Notes: generated from the letters alone by a model not told the origin. DNA of 64,000 nt from Gammaproteobacteria bacterium (GCA_024641505.1 JAHECY010000005.1:11502-75501); one strand, 5' to 3'. Shown: positions 48,462 to 63,982, counted from the stretch's first letter. Numbers and translations: made by a program.

Positions 48462-49541
<1,080 letters not shown>

Positions 49542-49627
49542 CCCGAGTTTAAACCACGGCATTCCACCCGATGACAAGCACACCATTGCTTCGGGGCGCT
49601 GACCGCTCTTCATGACGGAGGTATCCC

Positions 49628-50539
49628 ATCAAGCAGCTATTTGCGCAGGGTCCCACGATTACCGCGCGCATGATCGTATTGATCATCGCGTCCGTTGCCA
49701 TGATGTCGGTCGATCATCGATCGCAAAATTTGCAATTCCTCCGTGCGGCAATCTCGATTTTCGTGTTACCGGCTCAGTACCTGGTTAATATCCCGGTCGA
49801 AGCCGGCTATTGGGCCGGCGAAAGCCTGCAGTCGCGTGGCCAGCTGGAAGACGATAACGCACAGCTGAAAATGCAAAATACCCTGTTGAAAACCCAGCTC
49901 CAGAAACTCAACGCGATTGAGGCGGAAAACCAGCGGTTACGGCAATTATTGCGTTCCTCGAAGCGTGTCGGTGAAAAAATCCTGATCGGCGAGGTAATCG
50001 CCGTCGACCTTGACCCCTTCTCCCGGCAGTTGGTGCTGAATAAAGGCATTGATGCCGATGTCTTCGAAGGCCAGCCAATCCTGGATGCCGACGGCGTAAT
50101 GGGCCAAGTGGTTCATGTGGCGGCGTTCAACAGCATCGCCATGCTGATCACCGATCCCAATCATGCCATTCCGATTCAAGTAAACCGTAATGGGTTGCGG
50201 GCCATTGCCGTGGGCACCGGCAATCAGCAGCAGTTGGATATCCCGAATTTGCCCAACAACACCGATATCAAGGAAGGCGACCTGTTGATCACCTCCGGTC
50301 TGGGCGGCAGATTCCCGCCGGGCTACCCGGTGGCGCGCGTAACAAAGGTCGAAACCAATCCCGCCGAAGCGTATGCCAGGATTACCGCGGAACCCACGGC
50401 GAAACTGGACCGTAACCGCGAAGTGCTGATGGTGTGGCCGGAAAGCCGGCTCAACAAGCCCGACCTGACCCAGGTGCCGGCTGAAGACAGCGCCGACGGC
50501 AGTCCGCAGAAGACGCCAGCACAGGCCACGACCCCATGA
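49628..50539 (+). CDS. mreC: Rod shape-determining protein MreC (probable non-canonical ATC start; first in-frame ATG at 49670)
   Basis: TM, coiled coil, LNKGIDA, TSGLGGRFPPGYPV; GGAGG SD 6 nt before an in-frame ATC. Confidence 0.95.
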   Translation: MKQLFAQGPTITARMIVLIIASVAMMSVDHRSQNLQFLRAAISIFVLPAQYLVNIPVEAGYWAGESLQSRGQLEDDNAQLKMQNTLLKTQLQKLNAIEAENQRLRQLLRSSKRVGEKILIGEVIAVDLDPFSRQLVLNKGIDADVFEGQPILDADGVMGQVVHVAAFNSIAMLITDPNHAIPIQVNRNGLRAIAVGTGNQQQLDIPNLPNNTDIKEGDLLITSGLGGRFPPGYPVARVTKVETNPAEAYARITAEPTAKLDRNREVLMVWPESRLNKPDLTQVPAEDSADGSPQKTPAQATTP

Positions 50540-51015
50540 GATCATCCGGCTCCCTGGTTATCATATTGTCGTTTTTCATGGCCCTCACCGTGGCCATCGT
50601 GCCGCTGCCCGACTGGGCCGTCAACCTGCGCCCCGAAGCGGTGACCATGATGCTCATCTACTGGTGTCTGGCCTTACCCGAACGGGTGGGTGTGGGCATT
50701 GGCTGGCTGGTGGGACTGTTCATGGATGTCGCCAAAGGCGCGTTGCTGGGCCAATATGCCCTGTCTTTGACCATCGTGGCATGGCTTACCTTGAAATTGC
50801 ATCAACGTATTCGCGTTTTTCCACCCTGGCAACAGGCGCTTAGCGTTTTAATCCTGGTGGGCCTGGGTCAAATCGTCATACTGTGGGTCAAAGGGATCAT
50901 CGGTCAATCTCCCCAGAGTTGGACCTATTGGTTGCCCGCGGTTACCAGCAGCATACTGTGGCCCTGGTTTTTTCCGCTCATGCGCCGGGTAAGGCATTAC
51001 TACAAAGTCAGCTAG
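50536..51015 (+). CDS. mreD: Rod shape-determining protein MreD
   Basis: LRPEA...LIYWCL.LPERVG and GLFMDV..GALLG. Confidence 0.96.
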   Translation: MRSSGSLVIILSFFMALTVAIVPLPDWAVNLRPEAVTMMLIYWCLALPERVGVGIGWLVGLFMDVAKGALLGQYALSLTIVAWLTLKLHQRIRVFPPWQQALSVLILVGLGQIVILWVKGIIGQSPQSWTYWLPAVTSSILWPWFFPLMRRVRHYYKVS

Positions 51016-51022
51016 TGTTTCG

Positions 51023-52894
51023 ATGCGTGTACAAATCACCATTAAAGATCATATTCGCGAAGGTCAGCTGTTCACCAACCGGGCGGTGGCATTCGTCATC
51101 CTGTGTACCGCCCTGGTGCTGGTGATTATTTCACGCCTCGCTTATTTACAAATCATCAGCCATGAACATTTCACCACCTTATCGCAGAATAACCGGCTCA
51201 ATGTATTGCCCATCGAGCCGATTCGCGGGCTCATCTATGACCGTAACGGCGTAGTGCTTGCCCAGAACGTACCGATCTACAATCTCAAGATTACGCCGGA
51301 ACAGGTGTCGGATCTGCCCACAACCTTGAACAAGCTCGCAGAATTGGTGGAAATCACTCCACAAGATCTGGAACGCTTTCAAAAATTACGGAAGCAAAAC
51401 CGGTCATTCAAGGCGCTACCCTTGCGTTACCGGCTCACCGACCAGGAAGTAGCCAAATTTGCGGTCAACCGACATCGTTTTCCCGGCGTGGATATCGAAG
51501 CGGAATTGAGCAGGCATTACCCCCTGGGCGACCTGGTGGCGCATTCCGTGGGCTATGTGGGCCGAATCGACGAATCTGAATTGCAGCGTGTAGATCAAGC
51601 CAACTATGACGGCACCAGCCACATCGGCAAAACCGGTGTCGAAAGATACTACGAAGACATCCTGCATGGGCAGGTTGGCCACCAGGAAGTGGAAATCAAT
51701 GCCGCTGGTCGCATACTGCGGGTGGTCAACAAGAATGCGCCGATACCCGGCCAGAACCTGCATTTGAGCATCGACGCCCGTTTGCAGAAGATCGCCCAGG
51801 ATGCGTTCGCCGACAATAACGGTGCCCTGGTGGCGATCAACGCCAACAACGGTGCGGTGCTGACATTGACCAGTCTGCCGACATTCGACGCCAATCTTTT
51901 CGTCAACGGCATTGATGCCAAAACCTACCGCGAGTTGCGGGATTCCGAAGATCATCCGTTGATCAACCGGGCACTTTACGGCCAATACCCTCCCGGCTCC
52001 ACGATCAAGCCCTTTCTTGGCCTGGCGGGTCTGGAGCATTCCGTGAACAAGGGCGGGCACGTATTCTGCCCTGGTTATTTCTCCCTGGAAGGCGACAGCC
52101 ACCGTTATCGCGACTGGAAAAAAGAAGGGCATGGCATCGTTGACCTGGACAAAGCCATCGTCGAATCCTGCGATGTTTATTTCTATGACTTGGCGGTAAG
52201 CCTCGGTGTCGATCGGATCGCGACGTTTCTCAAACAATTTGGTTTCGGTGCGCGCACCGGTATCGATATCTACGGTGAATCCACCGGCCTGATACCCTCC
52301 CGGGAGTGGAAGGAGAAAGAACGCAAAGCACCGTGGTACCTTGGGGAAACCGTAAATATCGGCATCGGCCAGGGTTACACCTTGGTGACACCGTTGCAAC
52401 TGACCTTGGCGGTGGCGACCCTGGCCAATCGGGGGCTGCGCATCAATCCCCGACTGGTATCCGGCATTCAGGACCCGTTGAGCCGGGAAATGCAGCTGAT
52501 CGCGCCGACCCTGGCCGGTAATGTGGATGTGGTCAATCCAGATAACTGGCAACAGATCGTCAGGGCCATGACCCGGGTGGTGCATTTCTACAAAGGTACC
52601 GCCAAGGGCATCAGCGCCAACCTGCAATATCAGATCGCCGGCAAAACCGGCACCGCCCAGGTATTCGGCCTCAAGCAGGATGAAGAATACAAAGAAAAAG
52701 ACGTTCAGAAAAAACTGCGGGATCATGCCTTGTTTATCGCTTTCGCCCCGGCGGACCATCCGCAAATCGCGGTCGCCGCCATTGTCGAAAACGGTGGCCA
52801 CGGAGGCTCCGTCGCAGCACCCATCATTCGCAAAATCATGGACGCCTATTTGCTCAAAGAAGGTAACCTGGCGTCAGAGGAGACCGTGAACTGA
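51023..52894 (+). CDS. mrdA: Penicillin-binding protein 2
   Basis: YPPGSTIKP (SxxK), SCDVYFY (SxD) and KTGTAQ. Confidence 0.98.
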   Translation: MRVQITIKDHIREGQLFTNRAVAFVILCTALVLVIISRLAYLQIISHEHFTTLSQNNRLNVLPIEPIRGLIYDRNGVVLAQNVPIYNLKITPEQVSDLPTTLNKLAELVEITPQDLERFQKLRKQNRSFKALPLRYRLTDQEVAKFAVNRHRFPGVDIEAELSRHYPLGDLVAHSVGYVGRIDESELQRVDQANYDGTSHIGKTGVERYYEDILHGQVGHQEVEINAAGRILRVVNKNAPIPGQNLHLSIDARLQKIAQDAFADNNGALVAINANNGAVLTLTSLPTFDANLFVNGIDAKTYRELRDSEDHPLINRALYGQYPPGSTIKPFLGLAGLEHSVNKGGHVFCPGYFSLEGDSHRYRDWKKEGHGIVDLDKAIVESCDVYFYDLAVSLGVDRIATFLKQFGFGARTGIDIYGESTGLIPSREWKEKERKAPWYLGETVNIGIGQGYTLVTPLQLTLAVATLANRGLRINPRLVSGIQDPLSREMQLIAPTLAGNVDVVNPDNWQQIVRAMTRVVHFYKGTAKGISANLQYQIAGKTGTAQVFGLKQDEEYKEKDVQKKLRDHALFIAFAPADHPQIAVAAIVENGGHGGSVAAPIIRKIMDAYLLKEGNLASEETVN

Positions 52895-54021
52895 TGGAAT
52901 TTCGCTCTTACGCCTCTCCTGGCAACTCCCAGGCCAACACCAGCTTGCTGTACCGCTGGCATATCGATTTGCCCCTGCTGGCGGGCATCACCACGCTGGC
53001 CTGCGCCAGCCTGCTGATCCTCTACAGTTCCGGCGGCCAGGACCTGAACCTGATCTACCGCCAGATACTGCGATTCCTGATGGCGTTTGTGATTATGTTC
53101 GTAATGGCGCAAATCGCGCCCCATCACATTCAACGCTGGTCTCCTTGGCTATACGGCATCGGGCTGGCACTGTTGTTGGTGGTACTGTTGGCCGGAGAAA
53201 TCGGCAAGGGTGCGCAACGCTGGCTGGACCTCGGCCTGTTCCGGTTTCAACCCTCGGAAATGATGAAGGTGGCGGTACCCATGATGATAGCCTGGTATTT
53301 TACCGAGCAAGTCCTGCCACCACGCACCTCCCGCATCGCAGTAGCCACGTTGATGATCGTGGCCCCGGTATTCCTGATTTTCAAACAGCCGGATCTGGGC
53401 ACCGCAATCCTGGTGGGCAGCGCCGGTGTATTTGTGTTGCTGTTCGCTGGCCTTTATTGGCGCTGGGTGATCCTGGTGGGAATCTCCATCAGCGGCATGG
53501 CGCCAATCCTCTGGAACTATCTGCATGATTACCAGAAACAACGGGTGTTGACCTTTCTGAATCCGGAGAATGACCCTCTGGGCGCCGGGTATCATATTAT
53601 CCAGTCCAAAATCGCCATCGGTTCCGGTGGCATCTATGGCAAAGGCTGGCTCAACGGCACGCAGTCACAGCTGGATTTTCTGCCGGAACGTTCCACTGAC
53701 TTCATTTTCGCCGCGTTCGCGGAAGAGTTTGGGTTTATTGGCGTAGTGCTGCTCATGTCACTGTATTTATTCATCGTGCTGCGCGGCCTCTACATTGCCG
53801 CCATGGCCCAGGACACTTTCTCTCGCCTGCTCGCCGGCAGCCTGACAATGACCTTTTTTATTTACGTATTTGTCAACATCGGCATGGTCACCGGCTTGTT
53901 ACCCGTGGTGGGGTTGCCATTGCCGTTAATCAGTTTTGGCGGTACGTCTGTGGTAACCTTACTGGCGGGATTTGGTTTGCTGATGGGCATCCACACCCAC
54001 AGAAAACTGTTACCCGCCTGA
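52894..54021 (+). CDS. rodA: Peptidoglycan glycosyltransferase RodA
   Basis: GAQRWL, QPSEMMK, QPDLGT and PERSTDFIF. Confidence 0.98.
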   Translation: MEFRSYASPGNSQANTSLLYRWHIDLPLLAGITTLACASLLILYSSGGQDLNLIYRQILRFLMAFVIMFVMAQIAPHHIQRWSPWLYGIGLALLLVVLLAGEIGKGAQRWLDLGLFRFQPSEMMKVAVPMMIAWYFTEQVLPPRTSRIAVATLMIVAPVFLIFKQPDLGTAILVGSAGVFVLLFAGLYWRWVILVGISISGMAPILWNYLHDYQKQRVLTFLNPENDPLGAGYHIIQSKIAIGSGGIYGKGWLNGTQSQLDFLPERSTDFIFAAFAEEFGFIGVVLLMSLYLFIVLRGLYIAAMAQDTFSRLLAGSLTMTFFIYVFVNIGMVTGLLPVVGLPLPLISFGGTSVVTLLAGFGLLMGIHTHRKLLPA

Positions 54022-54066
54022 CCGGCCGCCATACGGGCCGGTGACGGCACGACTGACGGGGGGAAC

Positions 54067-55083
54067 ATGATGTCACAAAAACCAGCCGCCGTGATGATAG
54101 CGCTGCTCCTGGGAATATTGCTGGCCACCGAAACGCTGGCCGCGCCCAAGCGCGACACCAAAGGTATGCACCAGTTTATCAACGAGATGGTACGCGAACA
54201 TAAATTCAAGCGCGCGCGCCTTAAGAAATTGTTCAAGCAGGCGCAGTATCAAGACAGTATCATCGAAGCCATGACCCGGCCCGCCGAGGCCAAACCCTGG
54301 TACGTATACCGCGAAATTTTTCTAACCCCTGCTCGGCTTGCCGGGGGCAATGCGTTCTGGGAACAGAACCGGGAAACGCTGCTGCGCGCCGAGCAAACCT
54401 ATGGCGTACCGGCGGAAATCATTATCGCCATCCTGGGTGTCGAAACCCGCTATGGCGAGCAGCAAGGCGGCTACCGGGTATTGGATGCCTTGACCACTTT
54501 GGCCTTCTATTATCCGAAGCGCGCGACCTATTTTCGTAAGGAACTAAAGGAGTTTTTGCTGCTTACTCGCGAAGAAAAACTCAACCCCCTGGAGATAAAA
54601 GGCTCTTATGCCGGCGCCGTCGGTGAACCTCAGTTCATGCCCAGCAGCTATCGCCAGTACGCAGTGGATTTCGACAATGACGGTAAACGCAATCTCATGG
54701 AAAGTACCGCCGACACTATCGGCAGCGTTGCCAATTATTTCAAAAAACATAAATGGCAAACCGGCGCGAGCGTCATCACTCGGGCCTCGGTCAATGACGC
54801 GCAACTCAAACCACTGCTCGACCTCGGCCTCAAGCCCGCGACACCCGTGGCGAAACTGATGCAACAGGGAGTCGTACCCGCTGATCCCAACCTGGCACCC
54901 TCCACCCTGGGCGCTTTGATCGAGCTGGAGGACCAGGACGGCCCGGAACATTGGATCGGTCTGGATAACTTTTATGTGATAACGCGCTATAACCACAGCC
55001 CCTTATACGCGATGGCGGTATATCAGCTCAGCCAGCAAATTCTTGCCCAGCGCACTCCCGACGACCCCCAGGCAAATCGCTGA
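54067..55083 (+). CDS. mltB: Lytic murein transglycosylase B
   Basis: ILGVETRYG, GSYAGAVGEPQFMPSSY and YVITRYNHSPLYAMAV. Confidence 0.95.
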   Translation: MMSQKPAAVMIALLLGILLATETLAAPKRDTKGMHQFINEMVREHKFKRARLKKLFKQAQYQDSIIEAMTRPAEAKPWYVYREIFLTPARLAGGNAFWEQNRETLLRAEQTYGVPAEIIIAILGVETRYGEQQGGYRVLDALTTLAFYYPKRATYFRKELKEFLLLTREEKLNPLEIKGSYAGAVGEPQFMPSSYRQYAVDFDNDGKRNLMESTADTIGSVANYFKKHKWQTGASVITRASVNDAQLKPLLDLGLKPATPVAKLMQQGVVPADPNLAPSTLGALIELEDQDGPEHWIGLDNFYVITRYNHSPLYAMAVYQLSQQILAQRTPDDPQANR

Positions 55084-55094
55084 GCACGCTCGCC

Positions 55095-55922
55095 ATGCGC
55101 CACTTGCACCTGGGACTCTGCCTGTTACTCGCCACGGGCACCGGCTGCACCGGGTTATCGTCACACCCCGGATCACCGCAGGAACGAGCGCCAGCGGCGC
55201 AAGACCCGTCGGACACGGCGCCCGTGGGTCCGGTGAATCTGGCGTTGATCAAGGAGCCCACTCCGCGTCAGGAGGCACCGAGCCGATTTGGAAATCCGCA
55301 AACCTATGCCGTCAATGGGCGTCAGTACCAGGTCCTGGCGAGCGCCAAAGGCTACCGGGAAAAAGGCATAGCTTCTTGGTACGGCAGCAAATTTCATGGC
55401 CGACGCACCTCCAGTGGCGAAGACTACGACATGTATGCCTACAGCGCCGCGCACCGCAACCTGCCGTTACCCACCTATGTGCGCGTCACCAATTTGGTGA
55501 ATAACCGCAGTGTCATCGTCAAAGTAAACGATCGCGGCCCTTTTCATGACAATCGCATCATCGATCTGTCTTATGTCGCCGCCTTGAAACTCGACATGGT
55601 CGCCTCGGGTACCGCTTTGGTGGAAATCCAGACCCTTGATCCCCTATCCCCCGCCCCTGCCTCGGTAACGGTAAATCCCACCGGCACCGCAGCCGTGTTC
55701 ATCCAGGTGGGCGCTTTCACGGTCCCGGCCAATGCCCGTGCGCTGTCGACACGACTGCAACACCAGGGCATCGACCCTGTTCAAATACGTTCACCCACGA
55801 TCCCTGAGGACAGCTGGTATCGGGTCATCATCGGTCCCCTTGCTTCCGTGGCACAATCCGACGACCTGGTCAACCGTTTGAAAACATTGGGTATTTATGA
55901 CGTCAGGGTATTGGTGGATTAA
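55095..55922 (+). CDS. rlpA: Septal ring lytic transglycosylase RlpA (DPBB plus SPOR)
   Basis: GIASWYG, AAHRNLPLP, NDRGPF, IIDLSY and SPOR QVGAF. Confidence 0.96.
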   Translation: MRHLHLGLCLLLATGTGCTGLSSHPGSPQERAPAAQDPSDTAPVGPVNLALIKEPTPRQEAPSRFGNPQTYAVNGRQYQVLASAKGYREKGIASWYGSKFHGRRTSSGEDYDMYAYSAAHRNLPLPTYVRVTNLVNNRSVIVKVNDRGPFHDNRIIDLSYVAALKLDMVASGTALVEIQTLDPLSPAPASVTVNPTGTAAVFIQVGAFTVPANARALSTRLQHQGIDPVQIRSPTIPEDSWYRVIIGPLASVAQSDDLVNRLKTLGIYDVRVLVD

Positions 55923-56038
55923 CCCGGGGAAGTCGTTGTCAGAAATGACATGCCAGCCGGTAGGACCCGGCGGTCATGAATGCTAAACTCAACCATTAAT
56001 TGTTAAACCTAATTACCCTTATACGAGACCTGTAAATA

Positions 56039-57187
56039 ATGACACTTTTTCGGCATACATGGATGTTTATGGCCTTGCTGTTGACGCAGCAGACCCCCGC
56101 CGACCCATTGTTGGCTCCCACTCCCCCGGCGATCGACGCCAAGGGCTATATCCTTCTGGATTTCCATAGCCTGCGCGCCATTGCCAAAAGCAACGCGGAC
56201 CAGCGCATGGAACCGGCCAGTCTGACCAAGATGCTGAGCGCTTATGTCGTTGCCCATGAACTCGATGCCGGCCACATCCACGGGGATGATGAAGTCCTGA
56301 TCAGCGAAAAGGCCTGGCGCATGCCGGGGTCGCGCATGTTCATCCGGGCCGGAAGCAAGGTAACCGTCGATAACCTTCTCAGAGGCGTTATCATCCAGTC
56401 GGGCAACGATGCGGCGGTGGCCCTGGCGGAACATGTGAGCGGTACCGAGCAAGCCTTTGTCGTGTTGATGAATGAGCATGCCCAGCGCCTTGGCCTCATC
56501 AGCTCGCATTTCATGAATAGCACCGGCTTGCCCGACCCGGATCACTTCACCACGCCCCGGGATATGGCGACGCTGGCCAAAGCCATTATTCAGGATCATC
56601 CCGCCAGTTACAGCCTGTACGCCACCAAGGAATTCCAGTTCAACAATATCGTGCAACGTAACCGCAATGACCTGTTATGGCTGGATGACGACGTGGATGG
56701 TTTGAAAACCGGCCACACGGACAGCGCCGGCTACTGCCTGGTGGCATCCGCCCGCAAGAACAATATGCGCTTGATCGCCGTGGTGCTCGGCACCCGCAGT
56801 GAAGACGCCCGCGCCCAGGAAACCATAAAACTACTGGACTATGGATTCCGATTTTTCGAAACCCGGCGCTTGTATGAAGCCAATGAACCCATAACCGAAG
56901 TCACCATCTGGAAAGGCGCAAAAAAGAATCTAAGCCTGGGTTTGCGCGAGGATCTTTATGTCACCATTCCCCGTGGCCAATTTGACAACCTGGAAACCCG
57001 GCTGGACACCGAAACACGTATCATGGCGCCTGCCGTCAACGGCCAACAACTGGGCACCATGACCGTCAAACTCGGGGAGCAAGCTTTCGCCGAACGCAAT
57101 CTGGTGGCGCTGGAAGCCGTGCAATCCGGCACTCTGCTGGACGGCTTGATCGACGAAGTCAAACTGATGTTCCACAAAACCCCATGA
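56039..57187 (+). CDS. dacA: D-alanyl-D-alanine carboxypeptidase (PBP5/6 family)
   Basis: PASLTKM (SxxK), SGNDA (SxN) and KTGHT. Confidence 0.93.
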   Translation: MTLFRHTWMFMALLLTQQTPADPLLAPTPPAIDAKGYILLDFHSLRAIAKSNADQRMEPASLTKMLSAYVVAHELDAGHIHGDDEVLISEKAWRMPGSRMFIRAGSKVTVDNLLRGVIIQSGNDAAVALAEHVSGTEQAFVVLMNEHAQRLGLISSHFMNSTGLPDPDHFTTPRDMATLAKAIIQDHPASYSLYATKEFQFNNIVQRNRNDLLWLDDDVDGLKTGHTDSAGYCLVASARKNNMRLIAVVLGTRSEDARAQETIKLLDYGFRFFETRRLYEANEPITEVTIWKGAKKNLSLGLREDLYVTIPRGQFDNLETRLDTETRIMAPAVNGQQLGTMTVKLGEQAFAERNLVALEAVQSGTLLDGLIDEVKLMFHKTP

Positions 57188-58041
57188 GCATCGTTTATCT
57201 GAACGGGAAGTTCCTGCCCGCTGACCAGGCATTGGTACCCGTACTCGACCGCGGCTTCATCTTCGGCGACGGAGTATACGAAGTCATACCCGTGTATCAC
57301 GGGCGACTGTTTCGCCTGGAAGAACATCTGCGGCGTTTGCAAGACAGCATGGACGGCATCCGGTTGCACAACCCCCACACCGTGGCCGAATGGTCAGCGC
57401 TGCTGACGGAACTGGTGCAACGCAACGGCGGCGGTGATCTTTCCTTGTACCTGCACATTACCCGGGGGGTCGCGGAACGTGACCACGCCATGCCGCCTGG
57501 CATCGCGCCTACCGTCTATGCCATGTGCAACACGCTGAAAGCGCCGCCCGCACAACAACTGCAAGCGGGTATCGCCGCGATTACCGTCCCGGACATTCGC
57601 TGGCAATACTGTCACATCAAAGCCATTGCCCTGCTGCCCAATATTTTATTGCGCCAGCAGGCTGTTGACCGCGGCGCCATGGAAGCGATTCTGATTCGGG
57701 ATGGTGAGATGACGGAAGGCGCGGCAAGCAACATCTTTGTGGTACATAACGATGTCATCGCCACGCCGCCCAAGGGCCAACACCTGTTACCGGGCATCAC
57801 GCGCGACCTGATCGTGGAACTGGCGCAGACCCACGGCCTGGTGTGTGAACAACGTCGCATTCGGGAAGCCGAACTGGCCACCGCCGACGAGTTGTGGCTG
57901 ACCAGTTCCACCAAGGAAATCCTGCCGATTACCCGCCTCAATGACGCGCCGGTGGGCACCGGTAACCCAGGCAAGCAATGGCGCCGCATCTATGAAATCT
58001 ATCAGCAATTCAAGCGTGATCTTGCGGATACCCCGTCATGA
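57184..58041 (+). CDS. dat: D-amino-acid aminotransferase (PLP class IV)
   Basis: DRGFIFGDGVYEVI, IKAIALLPNIL, EGAASN and LPGITR; directly after dac. Confidence 0.8.
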   Translation: MSIVYLNGKFLPADQALVPVLDRGFIFGDGVYEVIPVYHGRLFRLEEHLRRLQDSMDGIRLHNPHTVAEWSALLTELVQRNGGGDLSLYLHITRGVAERDHAMPPGIAPTVYAMCNTLKAPPAQQLQAGIAAITVPDIRWQYCHIKAIALLPNILLRQQAVDRGAMEAILIRDGEMTEGAASNIFVVHNDVIATPPKGQHLLPGITRDLIVELAQTHGLVCEQRRIREAELATADELWLTSSTKEILPITRLNDAPVGTGNPGKQWRRIYEIYQQFKRDLADTPS

Positions 58042-58310
58042 CCGGCGAAGATAACGACTCACTGCTGGAATTTCCCTGCCAGTTTCCGATCAAGATCATG
58101 GGCCGCAATGCCGGCGACTTTCAAGACCGGGTGGTCGCCATGGTACGCCACCATGCGCCGGACTTATCCGCGGACGCGGTTCAAGTCAGGGCCAGCGGCC
58201 AAGGCAACTATCTGGCGGTCACCGTCACCATTGAAGCCCAAAGCCGGGCTCAGCTCGACGCCATATATCGTGAATTGACCGCCTGCGAAGACATCCTCAT
58301 GGCCCTGTGA
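58038..58310 (+). CDS. ybeD: YbeD/DUF493 family protein
   Basis: [20 protein letters not shown] and QLDAIY. Confidence 0.92.
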
Positions 58311-58311
58311 T

Positions 58312-58968
58312 GTGGAATCCGCTGTGATGATCATACGCAATCTGGGCCTGCAGCCCTATGTCGAAACCTGGACCGCGATGCGCCGGTTTACCGATACCCG
58401 CCAAGGCGAAACTCCGGACGAGGTGTGGCTGCTGGAGCACCCGCCGGTCTTTACCCAGGGACTTAACGGCAAAGGTCACCACATTCTGGACCCGGGTCCG
58501 ATTCCCGTGATCCAGGTTGACCGCGGCGGTCAGGTGACCTATCACGGCCCCGGTCAACTGGTGGGGTACATCCTCATGGATATGCAACGCCGGCAATGGG
58601 GTGTGCGACGACTGGTCAGCACCATAGAACAAACGCTGGTGCAATTATTGGCGACTTACGGCATTAGCGCCCAAGCCCGCGCCGAGGCGCCCGGTGTCTA
58701 TGTGGGCTCGGCGAAAATTGCCGCCCTGGGGTTGCGCGTGCGGCGCGGTGGCAGTTATCACGGTTTCAGTCTCAATGTCGACATGGACCTGACAGCGTTT
58801 TCCCGCATCAATCCCTGCGGTTATCCGGGGATGGCGGTAACCCAACTGGCGGCCTGGCAACCGGGCATTACCGTGGCACAGGTAATCCAGGACCTGACAC
58901 CGCTGCTGAGCCGGCGTCTGGTCGACGATGACGACATATTACAGCAACAACTTTCTTCAGGCGCATGA
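58312..58968 (+). CDS. lipB: Lipoyl(octanoyl) transferase LipB
   Basis: [36 protein letters not shown] and INPCG; start may be ATG 58327. Confidence 0.97.
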
Positions 58969-58971
58969 CCC

Positions 58972-59916
58972 ATGAGCACATCCGACAAAAAGGCCCAACG
59001 GGGCCAGGACAAAGTGGCACGGATTCCGGTAAAAGTGGAACCCACACAAGTACCGCTGCGCAAACCCAAATGGATAAGGGCCAAAGCCGCTAACAGCCAG
59101 CAAGTAGCGCGACTAAAATCCGTGCTGCGTGAACACCATCTGCACACGGTGTGCGAGGAAGCCTCCTGCCCTAATCTGGGAGAATGCTTCAGTCATGGCA
59201 CCGCCACCTTCATGATCATGGGCCATATTTGCACCCGGCGTTGTCCGTTCTGCGACGTGGCCCATGGCAAACCCGATCCTCTGGACCCGGAGGAACCACG
59301 CAACCTCGGGCGCACCATCGCCGCCATGGCGCTGCACTACGTGGTCATTACCTCCGTGGATCGGGACGATTTGCGCGACGGCGGCGCCGAGCATTTCGCC
59401 GCCTGTATTCGCGAAGTGCGTAGTCAGGTGCCGGGTATCAACATCGAAATCCTGGTGCCGGATTTCCGCGGCCGGGTCGAGCGGGCGCTGGAAATGCTGG
59501 CCATGGCACCGCCCGATGTTTTTAATCACAACCTGGAAACCGTGCCCCGCCTTTACAAACAAGCGCGGCCCGGTGCCGATTACCAGGGCTCCTTGCAACT
59601 GTTGCAAGCGTTCAAATCGCAACACCCGGCACTGCCCACGAAATCGGGCTTGATGGTGGGGATCGGCGAGACGCGCGAGGAGATTCTGCAGGTGATGGCG
59701 GACTTGCGCGCCCATGGCTGCGATATGCTGACCATTGGTCAATACCTGCAGCCCAGCAAATTTCATTTGCCGGTAGTACGCTACCTGGAGCCCGCGGAGT
59801 TTGAGGCCTTCGCCGCCGACGCCAAAGCCATGGGCTTTGACAAGGTCGCCAGCGGACCCATGGTGCGTTCCTCGTATCACGCGGATTTGCAGGCGGCGGG
59901 CGCCAGCGTCAGTTGA
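58972..59916 (+). CDS. lipA: Lipoyl synthase
   Basis: [20 protein letters not shown] and RSSYHA. Confidence 0.99.
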
Positions 59917-60014: not shown

Positions 60015-60290
60015 TTGACCAAGATAATACCAAGATTGTTATTCTTGATAAAAATAGTTCTGATCCTGGTCGGCGCACTGATGTTGGTAGGCGGTGGCGT
60101 CTGTGTGGCCTCCAATGCCGTGTTCACTTTCTCGAGTCTGCGCGACAATGGTGAATATTCAATTTATTTGGCACTCATGGGAATATCTGCCGTAATATCA
60201 GTCATCGGCTGGTGGTTGACCAAGGTTTCGCGCCGGATTGACACTACAGCGACTGCCGCCGTACAACAACAAGCAAGACACGATGAGTGA
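60015..60290 (+). CDS. Small two-TM membrane protein with LMLVGGGVC motif (Cys30)
   Basis: TTG start, basic N-region, TM1 ending in GGGVC, second TM; stop overlaps the next GTG start. Confidence 0.65.
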   Translation: MTKIIPRLLFLIKIVLILVGALMLVGGGVCVASNAVFTFSSLRDNGEYSIYLALMGISAVISVIGWWLTKVSRRIDTTATAAVQQQARHDE

Positions 60291-60982
60291 GAAGGGGACG
60301 TATGCGGGATCAACTGCAGTGGTTAGCTCTGGTGGCCGGTTTTTGCGCGCTGGTTGCCGGTTCACTCGGCTGTGCCACCATGCTGGTTTCAGATGCCACC
60401 GATACCCACGACTACACCCCGACGCCGGTTCTGACTGACGAGATAATTGCCATTGGCCAGCCCGACGCATCACTTTCGAAGAAACTCGGCCAACCCGACG
60501 TCATCGCCTTTATCGGCAAGAAGAACACCTATATGCTTTACCAGGGCGGCAAGGAATTAGCGGCAATCGCCGGGCTGCAGCTCGACGGCAGGCACATGAA
60601 TATCGACGCGGACTCCAGCCGGAATCTCTTTATCAAGGACCAGAAGGTATGGGGTCAATTGGTGCTGCAATACGGGGAAGACATGGAAGTTTCCACCGAC
60701 GAACGAGCCAAGCTGAAGGATGCCGGCTTCACGCAAATTGACCAAACCGAAGTTTACAGCAGGACGGTTGATATCGAAGGCGTCGTTTACCCCGCCATTT
60801 CGCTGACCGATGCCCAAATGGAAAAATTGACAACTCAACGTAAAATCAGTCTCTATGACCCCAACGACAACAGCCCGCCGCTTAACCTGAGTAAACTTCT
60901 GCTGATACCGGCCATTGCCGTGGATATTGTCCTGACACCGGTTTATCTTTTTGCCGGTTTGGTTATTCTTGTCTCCAATTAA
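60287..60982 (+). CDS. YidX-like lipoprotein
   Basis: Signal ending GSLGC; DEIIAIGQP...IAFIGKKNTYML; C-terminal hydrophobic LLIPAIAVDIVLTPVYL recalls E. coli YidX; start may be ATG 60302. Confidence 0.6.
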   Translation: MRRGRMRDQLQWLALVAGFCALVAGSLGCATMLVSDATDTHDYTPTPVLTDEIIAIGQPDASLSKKLGQPDVIAFIGKKNTYMLYQGGKELAAIAGLQLDGRHMNIDADSSRNLFIKDQKVWGQLVLQYGEDMEVSTDERAKLKDAGFTQIDQTEVYSRTVDIEGVVYPAISLTDAQMEKLTTQRKISLYDPNDNSPPLNLSKLLLIPAIAVDIVLTPVYLFAGLVILVSN

Positions 60983-60996
60983 TCGCCGCCCAAATC

Positions 60997-61749
60997 ATGT
61001 TTCCTCTCACCCTGCACCCCCACCTGATGCATGCGTTGTTTGAAATAGCCGCGGTGTCAAGCGGGGCATACTATTATCGCTACATCATGCGCCGCAACGG
61101 TATATCAACACAGGCACTGCTCAACGGCGGTCGGTTTGCCGTGGTGATTGGATGTATCTTCGGCGCGGCTATCGGCAACAAGGCGATGTTCTGGCTCGAG
61201 ATGCCGCAGCTGTTCCCACAGTTCTGGAACCAACCCGAGGTGTGGCTTGCCGGGCAGTCCATGGTAGGGGGCCTGCTGGGTGGTCTGATAGGAGTGGAGC
61301 TGGCAAAGAAATTTTCGGGGGTGACAAGCTCGACCGGGGACGCATTCGTGTTTCCCATATTGCTTGGACTGATCATCGGCCGTTTCGGCTGCTTCGTCGC
61401 TGGCCTGGATGATGGCACCTATGGCTTGCCAACCACCTTACCCTGGGGCGTCGATTTTGGTGACGGCATTGCGCGGCATCCCACCCAATTGTATGAAATC
61501 GTATTTGCCGGCGCACTCTGGCTGGGATTGCATTACACTCAACGGCATTTTTTGCTGCGGCAGGGTCTGTTATTTAAGCTCATGCTCGGCAGCTACTTAT
61601 TCTGGCGCCTGTTGGTGGATGCGCTCAAACCCAATCCTTTCGATTATGGTCTCGGCTTATCGGGCATCCAGATCATCTGTATTGTCGCGTTGTTCATCTA
61701 CCTGCCATACGCCTATTTCCAAATACAAAGACGCAGTATCGAAGCATGA
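60997..61749 (+). CDS. Prolipoprotein diacylglyceryl transferase (Lgt) paralogue
   Basis: GQSMVGGLLGG, GRFGCF, PWGVDFGDGIARHPTQLYE and WRLLVDALK; multiple TM helices. Confidence 0.85.
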   Translation: MFPLTLHPHLMHALFEIAAVSSGAYYYRYIMRRNGISTQALLNGGRFAVVIGCIFGAAIGNKAMFWLEMPQLFPQFWNQPEVWLAGQSMVGGLLGGLIGVELAKKFSGVTSSTGDAFVFPILLGLIIGRFGCFVAGLDDGTYGLPTTLPWGVDFGDGIARHPTQLYEIVFAGALWLGLHYTQRHFLLRQGLLFKLMLGSYLFWRLLVDALKPNPFDYGLGLSGIQIICIVALFIYLPYAYFQIQRRSIEA

Positions 61750-63230
61750 GCAGAAAAATTCGTCCGTGGCTGTTTTACGACACGACAGCCTCGGTATGTG
61801 CGAGTTGTCGACGCCAGGTAGAGGCTAAAATCGTCATCAAGGGCGACCAGGTGTTCCTGGAGAAATGGTGTCCCGCGCATGGGTTCGAGCGTACATTGAT
61901 ATGTGACGACGCCGAGTACTACCGACTGTGCCGCGAGGTGTATGTAAAACACCCCGAAATGCCCAGGCAGTTCAACACTCAGATGGTGCATGGCTGTCCC
62001 TACGACTGCGGTCTGTGCCCGGACCATATGCAACACTCCTGTTTGTCCATCATCGAAATTACCGACAATTGCAATTTGACTTGTCCGGTATGCTTCGCGG
62101 AGTCCGCACCACATCTGCGGCATCGACCGTTGCCTGATGTGATCGCGATGCTTGACGCGGTGGTGGCAAACGAAGGGGAAGCCGATGTGGTCCAGATATC
62201 CGGCGGTGAACCGACGCTGCACCCGGATTTTTTCGCCATTCTGGATGCCGCCAAAAGGCGGCCTATTCGGCACCTGATGGTGAACACCAACGGGCTGAAA
62301 ATCGCCACCGACCCGGACTTTGCCGACAAACTCGCCCAATATGCACCCGGGCTGGAGATCTATCTTCAATTCGATTCATTACGCGACGACACCCTCAAAC
62401 TCATTCGCGGCGCCACCCTGGCTGACAGTCATCAACGCGTGCTGGATCGCCTGGAATCAAGATCTATTTCCACGACCCTGGTGATGACGGTGATTTCCGG
62501 CATCAACGATGACCAGATCGGCGAGGTGATACAGCATGCGACAAAATGGCGATGCGTCAGGGGTGTAACCTTGCAGCCGGTGAGCGCAGTGGGACGGTTA
62601 ACGCTGGAACACCCGACTGAGCGCCTGACCGTAAGCGCAATACGTCGCATGGTCGCCGATCAATCACGGATTTTCACCAAGGAGGATGTGGTCCCGGTGC
62701 CGTGTAATCCCGACACCTTGGCGATGGCCTATGCGCTGAAGCATAATGACGCGATCATACCCCTGACCCGCCACCTGGGGTCGGAGGCATTACTTGCCGG
62801 TCCACGGAATACCATCGTATTTGAACGCGACCCCGCGTTGAAAGAACAGGTATTCAAGCTTTTTGCCACCAATCATTCACCGCAGTCCCAGGCGGCTTGC
62901 CTTGCCGAATTACTGTGTTGCCTGCCAGCAGTCGCCGCACCTGATCTTGGTTACGAAAACGTGTTCCGGGTATTGATCGTACAGTTAATGGATATTCACA
63001 ACCTGGATTTGCGCGCGCTGAAAAAATCCTGTATTCATTTCGCGCTACCCGATGGCAGATTAATCCCGTTTGAATCCTACAATCTGTTTTATCGAGGCAG
63101 ACTTTTCGCGCAAACAAGGAAAATCCAGGCGGAAATTGCCAAGCATACTCAAGATCGAGCCAAGACCGGGTCGGAAACGGTGTCATCAAGTGACCTTGTT
63201 CAAACAGACTCGCTGCATATTACAAATTAA
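61746..63230 (+). CDS. Radical SAM protein, Tes/GDGT-MAS (MJ0619)-like family
   Basis: C18xxC21...C42xxH45, C84PYDC88GLC91PDH94, C109NLTC113PVC116, ISGGEPT, LMVNTNG, IYLQFD and KKSCIH...DGRLIPFESYN; ATGA overlap with the Lgt paralogue. Confidence 0.85.
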   Translation: MSRKIRPWLFYDTTASVCASCRRQVEAKIVIKGDQVFLEKWCPAHGFERTLICDDAEYYRLCREVYVKHPEMPRQFNTQMVHGCPYDCGLCPDHMQHSCLSIIEITDNCNLTCPVCFAESAPHLRHRPLPDVIAMLDAVVANEGEADVVQISGGEPTLHPDFFAILDAAKRRPIRHLMVNTNGLKIATDPDFADKLAQYAPGLEIYLQFDSLRDDTLKLIRGATLADSHQRVLDRLESRSISTTLVMTVISGINDDQIGEVIQHATKWRCVRGVTLQPVSAVGRLTLEHPTERLTVSAIRRMVADQSRIFTKEDVVPVPCNPDTLAMAYALKHNDAIIPLTRHLGSEALLAGPRNTIVFERDPALKEQVFKLFATNHSPQSQAACLAELLCCLPAVAAPDLGYENVFRVLIVQLMDIHNLDLRALKKSCIHFALPDGRLIPFESYNLFYRGRLFAQTRKIQAEIAKHTQDRAKTGSETVSSSDLVQTDSLHITN

Positions 63231-63982
63231 TCCGTGACTGAGGAGTGATGCGGCGGGCCCTCCGAAGGCTGTGCGGGCAGGTGCTGCGGATGCCAGAGCT
63301 GCATCACCGGCGCCGTCAGTATCCACAGACCGAAACCCATTACCAGGCACGCGGCGGCCGTGCGGGTACCGGCACGACTGACCCATCGGCGCAATGGTTC
63401 GGCGAGCCCGCCCACCAACATCATGATCGGCAACGTACCTGCGCCGAAACTGACCATGATCGACGCACCCAGCACCCAGTGACCGCTGGCCGCCGCCACC
63501 ACCAGTGCGCTGTACACCAGACCGCAGGGCAGCCAACCCCATAAACTGCCGAGCAGCACCGCTCGCCACGGCCGATCCACAGGGATCACCAAGCGCACCA
63601 ATGGTTGTATATGCCGCCACACCAAGCGCTCACCCACACGCTCGAGCAGTGCCAAACCACGCCACCAGCCGCTCAGGTACAAGCCCATGGCAATAACCAC
63701 TGTCCCGGCCGCTACGCGTGAGACCGTCATCAACCAGCCCGCATGGATATGCAGCCAGCCGGCAAGGCCGCCGGCTAAAGCTCCGATCAACGCATAGCTG
63801 GCCACGCGCCCGACATTGAACAACAGCAGCAACAGCAAGTGTCGCGCACCGGAGCGCTGTCCCGTGACCATGGCGAAATTCAAACTGTTGACGATACCGC
63901 CACACATCACAACGCAATGCACCCCACCGAACACACCGACCAGTAGCGCCGACCCCAGCATCAATATTGAATCCGGCATCAT
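63227..63982 (-). CDS. DsbD_2 / sulfite exporter TauE/SafE family membrane protein (cbb3-oxidase maturation-associated type)
   Basis: GVFGGVHCVVMCGGI, FNVGRVASY, WGWLPCGLVYSAL and FGAGTLP. Confidence 0.85.
   Translation of the reverse strand: MMPDSILMLGSALLVGVFGGVHCVVMCGGIVNSLNFAMVTGQRSGARHLLLLLLFNVGRVASYALIGALAGGLAGWLHIHAGWLMTVSRVAAGTVVIAMGLYLSGWWRGLALLERVGERLVWRHIQPLVRLVIPVDRPWRAVLLGSLWGWLPCGLVYSALVVAAASGHWVLGASIMVSFGAGTLPIMMLVGGLAEPLRRWVSRAGTRTAAACLVMGFGLWILTAPVMQLWHPQHLPAQPSEGPPHHSSVTD

Follow-up and report, generated by a model that had tools for sequence, protein, structure and literature searches.

A candidate lipidation module pairing an Lgt paralogue and a Tes-like radical S-adenosylmethionine enzyme with small cysteine-bearing hairpin proteins in Beta- and Gammaproteobacteria

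Why should a paralogue of Lgt, the prolipoprotein diacylglyceryl transferase, be encoded next to a homologue of an enzyme that joins the tails of membrane lipids, with the gene for a very small cysteine-bearing membrane protein ahead of both? The question is raised by a four-gene cassette at positions 60015 to 63230 of a 64,000-nucleotide stretch of DNA from a Gammaproteobacteria bacterium (GCA_024641505.1, JAHECY010000005.1:11502-75501; we refer to the whole stretch as the window), which an earlier note, made from the sequence alone, had read as an undescribed lipidation system. We find that small hairpin proteins, the Lgt paralogue and a Tes-like radical S-adenosylmethionine (SAM) enzyme form a conserved unit. 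The reading that we tentatively prefer, with somewhat less than even confidence, is that Lgt-type lipidation of a hairpin cysteine is combined in this module with Tes-type coupling of lipid tails; the chemical steps, the order of the enzymes and the product are all inferred. The earlier interpretation is in this way partly supported, with clear support gained for the cysteine as a substrate and the chemistry still at the stage of inference.

The earlier note had set conserved linkage across genomes as its test, and the linkage is observed directly. Our comparison covers 83 loci, 80 of them from a scan of one genome per species and 3 from exact look-ups. In 79 of the 83, the radical SAM gene is preceded on its own strand by a gene for the Lgt paralogue; the two are also coupled translationally, the Lgt stop and the radical SAM start overlapping by 4 nucleotides in 44 loci and by another length in 6. 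Small two-helix proteins, one to three per locus, accompany the pair in 73 of the 83. BLAST follows the small protein to only 3 of the 83 loci, and an iterated hidden Markov model (HMM) was needed to find the others; hydrophobic profiles of this kind may catch spurious helices, and we therefore relied on the cysteine motif and on the position beside the Lgt gene. Three of the four loci without an upstream Lgt paralogue (L015, L024 and L038) have little upstream sequence in the fetched contig, and the fourth is weighed below.

The scanned loci include members of the Methylococcaceae, Gallionellaceae, Dechloromonas/Azonexus, Zoogloea, Pelomonas/Roseateles and Undibacterium, as well as Massilia, Collimonas, Cellvibrio, Thiotrichales, Chromatiales and Methylotenera. 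The radical SAM protein itself has at least 8000 relatives, all significant, the best 120 of which are 66 to 83% identical to it, and its close relatives come from Methylococcales, Gallionellaceae (Ferriphaselus), Azoarcus, Thiobacillaceae, Sulfuricella and Rhodocyclales. The genes that flank the cassette vary from genome to genome (lipA, which precedes it in the window, is a neighbor in 0 of the 83 loci, and DsbD_2, which follows it, in 1), so the conserved unit moves among genomic contexts. That unit has three parts, namely the small hairpin proteins, the Lgt paralogue and the radical SAM gene, and the module is widespread in Beta- and Gammaproteobacteria and is present in at least one genome of the Myxococcales. 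Its recurrence in this order in about 80 genomes puts the arrangement far beyond chance.

These results bear on the plainest alternative explanation, in which an ordinary housekeeping Lgt happens to lie beside a generic radical SAM gene and a small open reading frame (ORF). The names given by annotation pipelines, "prolipoprotein diacylglyceryl transferase" for the paralogues and "radical SAM protein" for their partners, are indeed generic, and no second lgt is present within the 64-kb window, both of which would be expected under such a coincidence. The three-gene order in about 80 genomes with varied flanks argues against it, as does the occurrence of the two enzymes as a single fusion protein, and the properties of the Lgt paralogue described below also speak for a distinct protein family. 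We consider a chance neighborhood of this kind very improbable.

Distant relatives repeat the same theme. In a Myxococcales metagenome-assembled genome (MAG; L085), genes for two four-helix proteins, which bear CVGGFC and LSGGYC, come first, the Lgt paralogue next and the radical SAM gene last, and two unassigned contigs (L086 and L088) carry Lgt and radical SAM genes together with small proteins bearing a cysteine at a helix end. A natural fusion of LGT, Zn-ribbon and Radical_SAM domains (733 to 756 amino acids; one cluster, on three metagenome contigs) joins the two enzymes through a Pro/Ala-rich linker of about 48 residues, and a 61-amino-acid protein encoded 3' of the fusion gene ends in LLGFGLCLTLAR, where LLGFGLC is followed by LTLAR. 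Lgt reportedly has seven helices and a cytoplasmic C-terminus, a topology attributed to Pailler et al. (2012); the fusion fits this topology, and the radical SAM domain would therefore be cytoplasmic. In one of these contigs (L084, 2989-6511) the fusion gene is preceded, with a 4-nucleotide overlap, by a gene for a 380-amino-acid protein that has a rhodanese-like loop (CAGGLRS) near its N-terminus and a membrane domain of several helices rich in cysteine, and the rhodanese hints at sulfur chemistry in that lineage.

Two Lgt paralogues that stand without a radical SAM gene adjoin canonical lipoprotein genes, one with AVAGC that overlaps the Lgt start (L089) and one with ALGAC (L092). Two paralogues, that of L089 among them (P0288 and P0335; L089 4001-5392 and L090 243-1646), carry a C-terminal fused transmembrane helix ending in VASWGC|VGW, followed by a domain of about 200 residues, and look like fusions of an enzyme with its substrate. 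The wider Lgt-like family thus accompanies proteins with a cysteine after a helix even where the radical enzyme is absent, and the radical enzyme of this clade is almost never found without a Lgt paralogue.

The small protein of the window (91 amino acids; 60015..60290, plus strand, TTG start) is the putative dedicated substrate. It matched no Pfam or NCBIfam family and was recognized by its ORF call and by a family HMM built on related loci, with an E value of 8.6e-13, as the sole such copy in the window. Its conserved cysteine, Cys30 (codon TGT, read from the sequence at 60102..60104, plus strand), ends the motif G26-G-G-V-C30 (residues 26-30) at the outer end of helix 1. In the alignment a basic residue and some 12 to 13 hydrophobic residues lead to the motif G-[GF]-G-x-C or GFGxxGLCG, after which come a short loop, helix 2 and further basic residues. 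A cysteine lies within the motif window in 111 of the 115 family matches; two of the four exceptions are second stretches in ORFs whose first stretch has the cysteine, and the other two are weak matches. The motif has the consensus [GAF]-G-[L>A,F,I]-C-[G>V,A], and among 110 motifs Gly occupies position -2 in 98 and position +1 in 67, with Leu at position -1 in 70. Conservation is concentrated at this motif, and the cytoplasmic tails are not conserved. Two or three tandem, divergent copies of the small-protein gene often precede the Lgt gene, copies sometimes follow it, and in loci of the Dechloromonas type an extra copy lies between the Lgt and radical SAM genes.

The distribution of charge suggests how these proteins sit in the membrane. 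The mean number of lysines and arginines is 1.78 for the 10 residues that precede helix 1, 0.23 for the 15 that follow the cysteine and 3.46 for the 16 that follow helix 2, a clear positive-inside signal that predicts a hairpin with both termini in the cytoplasm and the cysteine at the periplasmic face. The cysteine would therefore lie at the outer face, the side of the Lgt active site (PMC4728403). A positively charged n-region and an h-region like those of lipoproteins are also present. Because Leu stands at position -1, cleavage by signal peptidase II seems unlikely, and the product may be an internally lipidated hairpin.

Does the Lgt paralogue look able to modify such a protein? It has 250 amino acids (60997..61749, plus strand) and was identified through Pfam, a profile search of the PDB and a structural model. 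Its score against PF01790 LGT is 81.5 bits (cut-off 24.9; residues 12-234), and it falls below every NCBIfam lgt cut-off (34.6 bits against 118.9 for TIGR00544 and 39.1 against 334 for NF000778), as do the distant Lgt paralogues. A single-sequence phmmer search of the PDB found nothing for it, a profile of Lgt paralogues matched only Escherichia coli Lgt (5AZB), and the same entry is the sole significant Foldseek match in the PDB to its AlphaFold2 (AF2) model (pLDDT 88.9; E = 1.6e-4, probability 1.0, TMq 0.55). The seven-helix Lgt fold is present in the model.

The comparison with E. coli Lgt (5AZB/5AZC) is informative because likeness and difference fall on different sides of the active site. 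In E. coli, R143 and R239 activate the C3-O bond of phosphatidylglycerol at the periplasmic side, and His103, which is proposed to bind the lipobox peptide, is essential, since complementation is lost with each of the substitutions A, N, Q, R and Y (PMC4728403). The equivalents of R143, H196, E202, Y235, R239 and E243 are kept in the paralogue, with R143, H196, Y235, R239 and E243 corresponding in the profile alignment to R129, H161, Y200, R204 and D208; His103 of the HGGL motif is replaced by V90 and Asn146 of the signature motif by C132. These features recur in diverse representatives. Among the best 150 representatives the R143 position is Arg in 149 and the R239 position Arg in 139 (the rest are gaps), the Tyr is kept in 140 and the His in 145, the His103 position is Val in 129 and His in none, and the Asn146 position is Cys in 149. 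In the signature window, G-R-F-G-C-F-V-A-G-L-D-D in place of G142-R-L-G-N146-F-I-N-G-E151, the Arg and Gly residues are kept and the Glu151 position is Asp or Glu. The paralogue is also shorter (250 amino acids, compared with 291), and the segment from the signature to RHP(S/T)QLYE spans about 21 profile positions, whereas it has about 42 residues in E. coli Lgt. In both systems the presumed acceptor is a cysteine found where an N-in hydrophobic helix reaches the periplasm, but the paralogue gene adjoins its own candidate substrates, with the motif G-L-C-G, and a radical SAM gene.

A HMMER search over 1.84 billion cluster representatives (50% identity) returned at least 281 clusters at E <= 1e-30. 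We conclude that these proteins form a large and distinct Lgt-like subfamily in which the lipid-activating center is kept and the acceptor side is changed. Its size, the Val/Cys signature shared by the best 150 representatives, the scores far under the lgt cut-offs and the missing essential histidine all argue against an ordinary housekeeping Lgt that lies beside a radical SAM gene by coincidence.

The third part of the module, the radical SAM enzyme (494 amino acids; 61746..63230, plus strand), was assigned by Pfam, NCBIfam, phmmer and Foldseek. Pfam recognizes Zn_ribbon_HMPTM and Radical_SAM domains. The best curated family is TrsS (NF045646), which aligns end to end (profile positions 2-431 of 441) with 312.8 bits against a cut-off of 490, and the radical SAM proteins of the distant Lgt-linked loci reach 282 to 334 bits, all under that cut-off; NCBIfam Tes gives 266.7 bits against 450, with a match restricted to residues 14-336. 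In a phmmer search of the PDB the protein matched GDGT-MAS (MJ0619, 7TOL) with E = 3.3e-58 over residues 13-328 and 400-452, and its AF2 model (pTM 0.80) aligns with 7TOL over 487 columns in Foldseek (TM 0.72-0.73, E = 4.5e-33), while all other PDB matches cover the radical SAM core alone at a TM of about 0.35. Judged by this model, the protein is a full-length structural homologue of GDGT-MAS/Tes, as the earlier note had supposed in calling it Tes-like. That note had grouped Mss with Tes as well, and here it erred: Mss belongs to a different radical SAM family (PMC13159169). TrsS, a family reportedly named by Haft and Tolstoy in 2025, differs from the module enzyme in more than the score, as the radical SAM gene of the window has no selenocysteine codon and no Trs-named NCBIfam model recognizes the Lgt paralogue or the small proteins.

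GDGT-MAS has a rubredoxin-like iron site, an N-terminal [4Fe-4S] cluster held by three cysteines and a histidine, a radical SAM cluster and a C-terminal [4Fe-4S] cluster, and it joins the terminal carbons of two lipid tails via a carbon-sulfur intermediate on the C-terminal cluster (PMC9433317). The module enzyme shares the four-domain architecture over its full length, with its CX2C...CX2H, CX3CX2C+His and CX3CX2C sites and a C-terminal domain that bears cysteines. An alignment of 84 sequences shows the rubredoxin-like site (C18, C21, C42, H45), the N-terminal cluster (C84, C88, C91 and a histidine, H94/H97, and also C99) and the radical SAM cluster (C109, C113, C116) to be invariant; in the C-terminal domain C320, C391, C392, C429 and H431 are kept in 84 of 84 and C385 and M415 in 83 each. 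The differences are that identity with MJ0619 is 26%, that the score is under the Tes cut-off and that Met439 and Tyr459 of GDGT-MAS are not conserved in the HMMER alignment, where they correspond to V412 and F432 (the model is of low confidence at residues 343-401). Moreover, the hosts of the module are ester-lipid Proteobacteria with no known tetraethers, and the enzyme is nearly always linked to a Lgt paralogue and small Cys proteins, a linkage unreported for Tes. At one locus (L086, 7049-8505) the radical SAM gene was called as ORFs of 437 and 61 amino acids, the second of which encodes the conserved C-terminal part; a frameshift or an error of assembly is the probable cause.

Since the enzyme belongs to the radical SAM superfamily, its target could also be the protein rather than a lipid. 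It might act like a maturase of peptides that are made by the ribosome and modified after translation (RiPPs), forming a thioether or C-C crosslink at the cysteine or the Gly-rich motif, or it might attach a lipid carbon to the cysteine sulfur, with the Lgt paralogue serving for lipidation or for mere membrane docking. Tandem genes for short Cys-containing peptides do resemble RiPP precursor genes, the passage of GDGT-MAS through a carbon-sulfur bond to a cluster sulfide (PMC9433317) puts C-S formation within reach of this fold, and the C-terminal pair C391 and C392 is invariant. On the other hand, Pfam finds neither a SPASM (or twitch-type maturase) domain nor a leader-binding RRE domain in the 494-amino-acid protein, the NCBIfam SPASM-family matches cover only the radical SAM core (about residues 51-282) at 53 bits or less, with SkfB and SuiB likewise matching the core only, and no structure but that of the lipid enzyme 7TOL matches the whole protein. 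The motif would also lie at the periplasmic end of a helix, remote from a cytoplasmic enzyme. We judge protein-directed chemistry quite unlikely, and a RiPP/SPASM maturase was rejected as the primary reading for want of both domains.

A stronger competitor follows from the same structural match. Both enzymes may serve a lipid-only pathway that makes a modified lipid with tail-coupled, macrocyclic or membrane-spanning structure, with the Lgt-fold protein as a membrane-embedded subunit for lipid binding or transfer and the small Cys proteins as structural, regulatory or carrier subunits. The full-length homologue acts on free membrane lipids (PMC9433317), and Zeng et al. propose bacterial Tes homologues, including proteobacterial ones, as synthases of membrane-spanning lipids (PMC8941075); the fusion of Lgt and radical SAM domains would suit a two-domain lipid enzyme, and loss of the histidine proposed to bind peptide could mean that there is no peptide acceptor. 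What such a pathway leaves poorly explained is a near-invariant cysteine exactly at the Lgt acceptor position, and the tandem, divergent small genes behave as substrates would, unlike stoichiometric subunits. Larger helix-Cys proteins of the same topology have been recruited into the cassette, Lgt paralogues that have no radical SAM partner still adjoin lipoprotein genes, and the cytoplasmic tails that subunits would need for contact with the radical SAM protein are not conserved. A pathway confined to lipids therefore seems to us unlikely on balance, though it deserves serious consideration.

In the reading that we prefer, lipidation of the hairpin cysteine with coupling of the attached tails, the hairpin proteins, and larger proteins of the same topology, would have an N-in helix whose periplasmic end presents a cysteine preceded by a Gly-rich stretch. 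The Lgt paralogue would use its Arg-Arg center to move a glycerolipid, in the simplest case diacylglyceryl from phosphatidylglycerol, onto this cysteine, and its altered acceptor site, with Val for His103 and Cys for Asn146, would match the non-canonical G-L-C-G motif. At the cytoplasmic face the radical SAM enzyme would abstract hydrogen from an unactivated lipid-tail carbon, whether the tail belongs to the donor lipid or to the lipidated protein. A new bond, C-C (or C-S), would result, and the lipid bound to the protein would then have tails that are coupled, macrocyclic or membrane-spanning. A bolder proposal is that the module performs a new modification, in which the Tes-type enzyme welds the tail ends of the Cys-bound lipid together or to a lipid of the opposite leaflet; the product might then be a protein tied covalently to a macrocyclic or membrane-spanning lipid, and its bearers would be Beta- and Gammaproteobacteria of an ordinary, largely aerobic kind, or the small proteins might be templates for such lipids. 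We regard this proposal as fairly unlikely.

Several points weigh against lipidation with tail coupling and deserve to be told together. The small-protein motif departs from the canonical lipobox [LVI][ASTVI][GAS]C (in the window it reads G-G-V-C), with Leu at -1 in the majority of motifs; the GGGVC cysteine of the earlier proposal is near-invariant and in the position of a Lgt substrate. What the cell would gain from lipidating hairpins is not evident, because they are already anchored in the membrane. Since the essential His103 is Val, neither transferase activity nor identical chemistry can be assumed for the paralogue, and the dedicated Lgt paralogue of the earlier note is upheld in its fold and its Arg residues rather than in its mechanism. 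The C-terminal site of the radical SAM enzyme is similar to that of GDGT-MAS, but not demonstrably identical, and may work differently. With the cysteine predicted to be periplasmic and the enzyme cytoplasmic, joint chemistry could take place only at the tail ends, in the interior of the bilayer.

The linkage, too, has its exceptions. Locus L030 (1855-6428) contains a true orphan radical SAM gene of the same clade, at 66% identity and with intact upstream sequence that holds an unrelated minus-strand lipoprotein and a gene that is ComEC-like by eye, with no Lgt paralogue within 5 kb; the partner genes may lie elsewhere in that genome. Conversely, three of the six informative distant contexts of Lgt paralogues (L087, L089 and L092) are without a radical SAM gene.

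How does the module compare with systems that are already known? The nearest case of a lipidated short peptide is the dyb RiPP-lipoprotein hybrid (bioRxiv 10.1101/2025.10.31.685832), in which a short ribosomal peptide from a biosynthetic cluster receives an S-diacylglyceryl group on an invariant cysteine; there the lipobox is canonical and Lgt, LspA and Lnt are the housekeeping enzymes, with neither a dedicated Lgt paralogue nor a radical SAM enzyme. Mss of Thermotoga, likewise a radical SAM enzyme, has been proposed to join two acyl tails of bacterial ester lipids, a reaction of the sort supposed here, but it is not a Tes homologue, occurs in anaerobes and has no reported Lgt or Cys-protein partners (PMC13159169). 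The module therefore resembles the Lgt step on the one hand and the Tes reaction on the other, and by its NCBIfam scores, and on the Lgt side also by the missing His103, it falls outside the defining limits of both families.

The earlier note knew of no characterized pathway that pairs the two enzyme families, and we found none either. No curated NCBIfam family describes a Lgt-radical SAM pairing, a pairing of Lgt or diacylglyceryl transferase with radical SAM or Tes proteins is undescribed in the full-text literature searched (subscription-only papers lay outside its scope), and the words Lgt, diacylglyceryl and lipoprotein are all absent from a 2026 review of lipid-modifying radical SAM enzymes. 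Zeng et al. (2022) listed 456 bacterial Tes homologues, proteobacterial ones included, and tied them provisionally to the synthesis of branched glycerol dialkyl glycerol tetraether (brGDGT) lipids, the branched tetraethers that serve as palaeoclimate proxies; the accessible part of that paper contains nothing on a Lgt linkage of Tes homologues (PMC8941075). The module is apparently undescribed.

Two practical consequences follow. A large proteobacterial clade of Tes homologues is instead tied to a Lgt paralogue and Cys hairpin proteins, and because that clade is Lgt-linked, counts of Tes homologues are unsafe as a marker of brGDGT producers. Annotation pipelines, for their part, mislabel a large Lgt-like subfamily as housekeeping Lgt. 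If lipidation with tail coupling is true, protein lipidation would gain a new form, and Tes-type C-C coupling its first use linked to a protein.

Within the window, the ORF listing with Pfam and NCBIfam searches found all four co-oriented ORFs where the earlier note had placed them and with the domains it had given them, and the junctions were read directly from the sequence: GTGA at 60287-60290, a 14-nucleotide gap at 60983-60996 and ATGA at 61746-61749. On the 5' flank lies lipA (58972..59916; LipA domain), and on the other side a convergent DsbD_2 gene (251 amino acids; 63227..63982, minus strand; Pfam), whose stop codon overlaps that of the radical SAM gene at 63227-63230, again as had been claimed. 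The note took the AT-rich 5' end for the trace of an acquired cassette. The small ORF does have a low G+C fraction, 0.478, compared with 0.533 for the cassette, 0.572 for positions 50000-59916 and 0.626 for DsbD_2, but composition is a weak argument for acquisition, and the variable genomic context is a better one. No Rfam family or tRNA was found in the 64-kb window, and a scan for promoters and terminators gave nothing exceeding shuffled controls.

The cassette stands at the end of a housekeeping block (window positions 48489-59916) that contains mreB, mreC, mrdA, rodA, mltB, rlpA and dacA and continues with a class IV aminotransferase, DUF493 (ybeD-like), lipB and lipA. DsbD_2 and lipA were considered as parts of the system and rejected, on the ground that they are neighbors in 1 and 0 of the 83 loci, respectively; no other fetched locus has lipA beside the cassette.

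Some neighbors at other loci are worth recording. In an Azonexaceae MAG (L020, 3110-4996), genes for proteins of 390 and 218 amino acids, judged AAA+ ATPase-like and TIR-like from their sequence, separate the Lgt paralogue from the radical SAM gene and look like an unrelated insertion that splits the cassette. A role in anti-phage defense was rejected, as PADLOC shows only a similarity of the radical SAM core to pVip and the TIR/AAA+ pair is an insertion. Neighbors of a membrane-stress type were also seen, namely MgtC and an MscS-like channel downstream in L085 (7325-10248), an MscS-like gene upstream in L002 (2154-3266) and a pair of NfeD and Band_7 (stomatin-like) genes directly upstream in L088 (1817-3197), cases too few for an association.

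The fourth gene of the cassette, at 60287..60982 on the plus strand, was delimited by its ORF call and homologues. It encodes an accessory lipoprotein-like protein of 231 amino acids if translation begins at GTG 60287, or, as is likelier, of 226 amino acids if it begins at ATG 60302. Of the two starts in this region (window positions 60287-60310), the latter is probably the true one because it is preceded by the ribosome-binding site GAAGGGG and because the homologues begin at an aligned Met. The GTGA overlap described in the earlier note is thus present in the sequence but may not be used, in which case an 11-nucleotide gap separates the first two genes instead.

This protein matches no Pfam, NCBIfam or PADLOC family. 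It has the signal and lipobox LVAGSLGC|AT, a domain of about 170 residues and a C-terminal transmembrane helix; the LVAGSLGC|AT sequence is kept in 7 of 7 homologues and agrees, on inspection, with a PROSITE-type lipobox rule, and the C-terminal helix, conserved in the family, is atypical of lipoproteins. Its topology, with both termini in the cytoplasm, is the same as that of the small protein. Homologues occur in 6 of the 83 loci (L004-L008 and L022), so that, contrary to the earlier view of it as a member of the system, the lipoprotein is a lineage-specific accessory outside the conserved core. In Undibacterium (L071, 4073-4999) a second kind of accessory lipoprotein is found in the cassette, a 308-amino-acid protein with LIGGTGC and, as judged by eye, Sel1-type repeats, encoded between the Lgt paralogue and the radical SAM gene.

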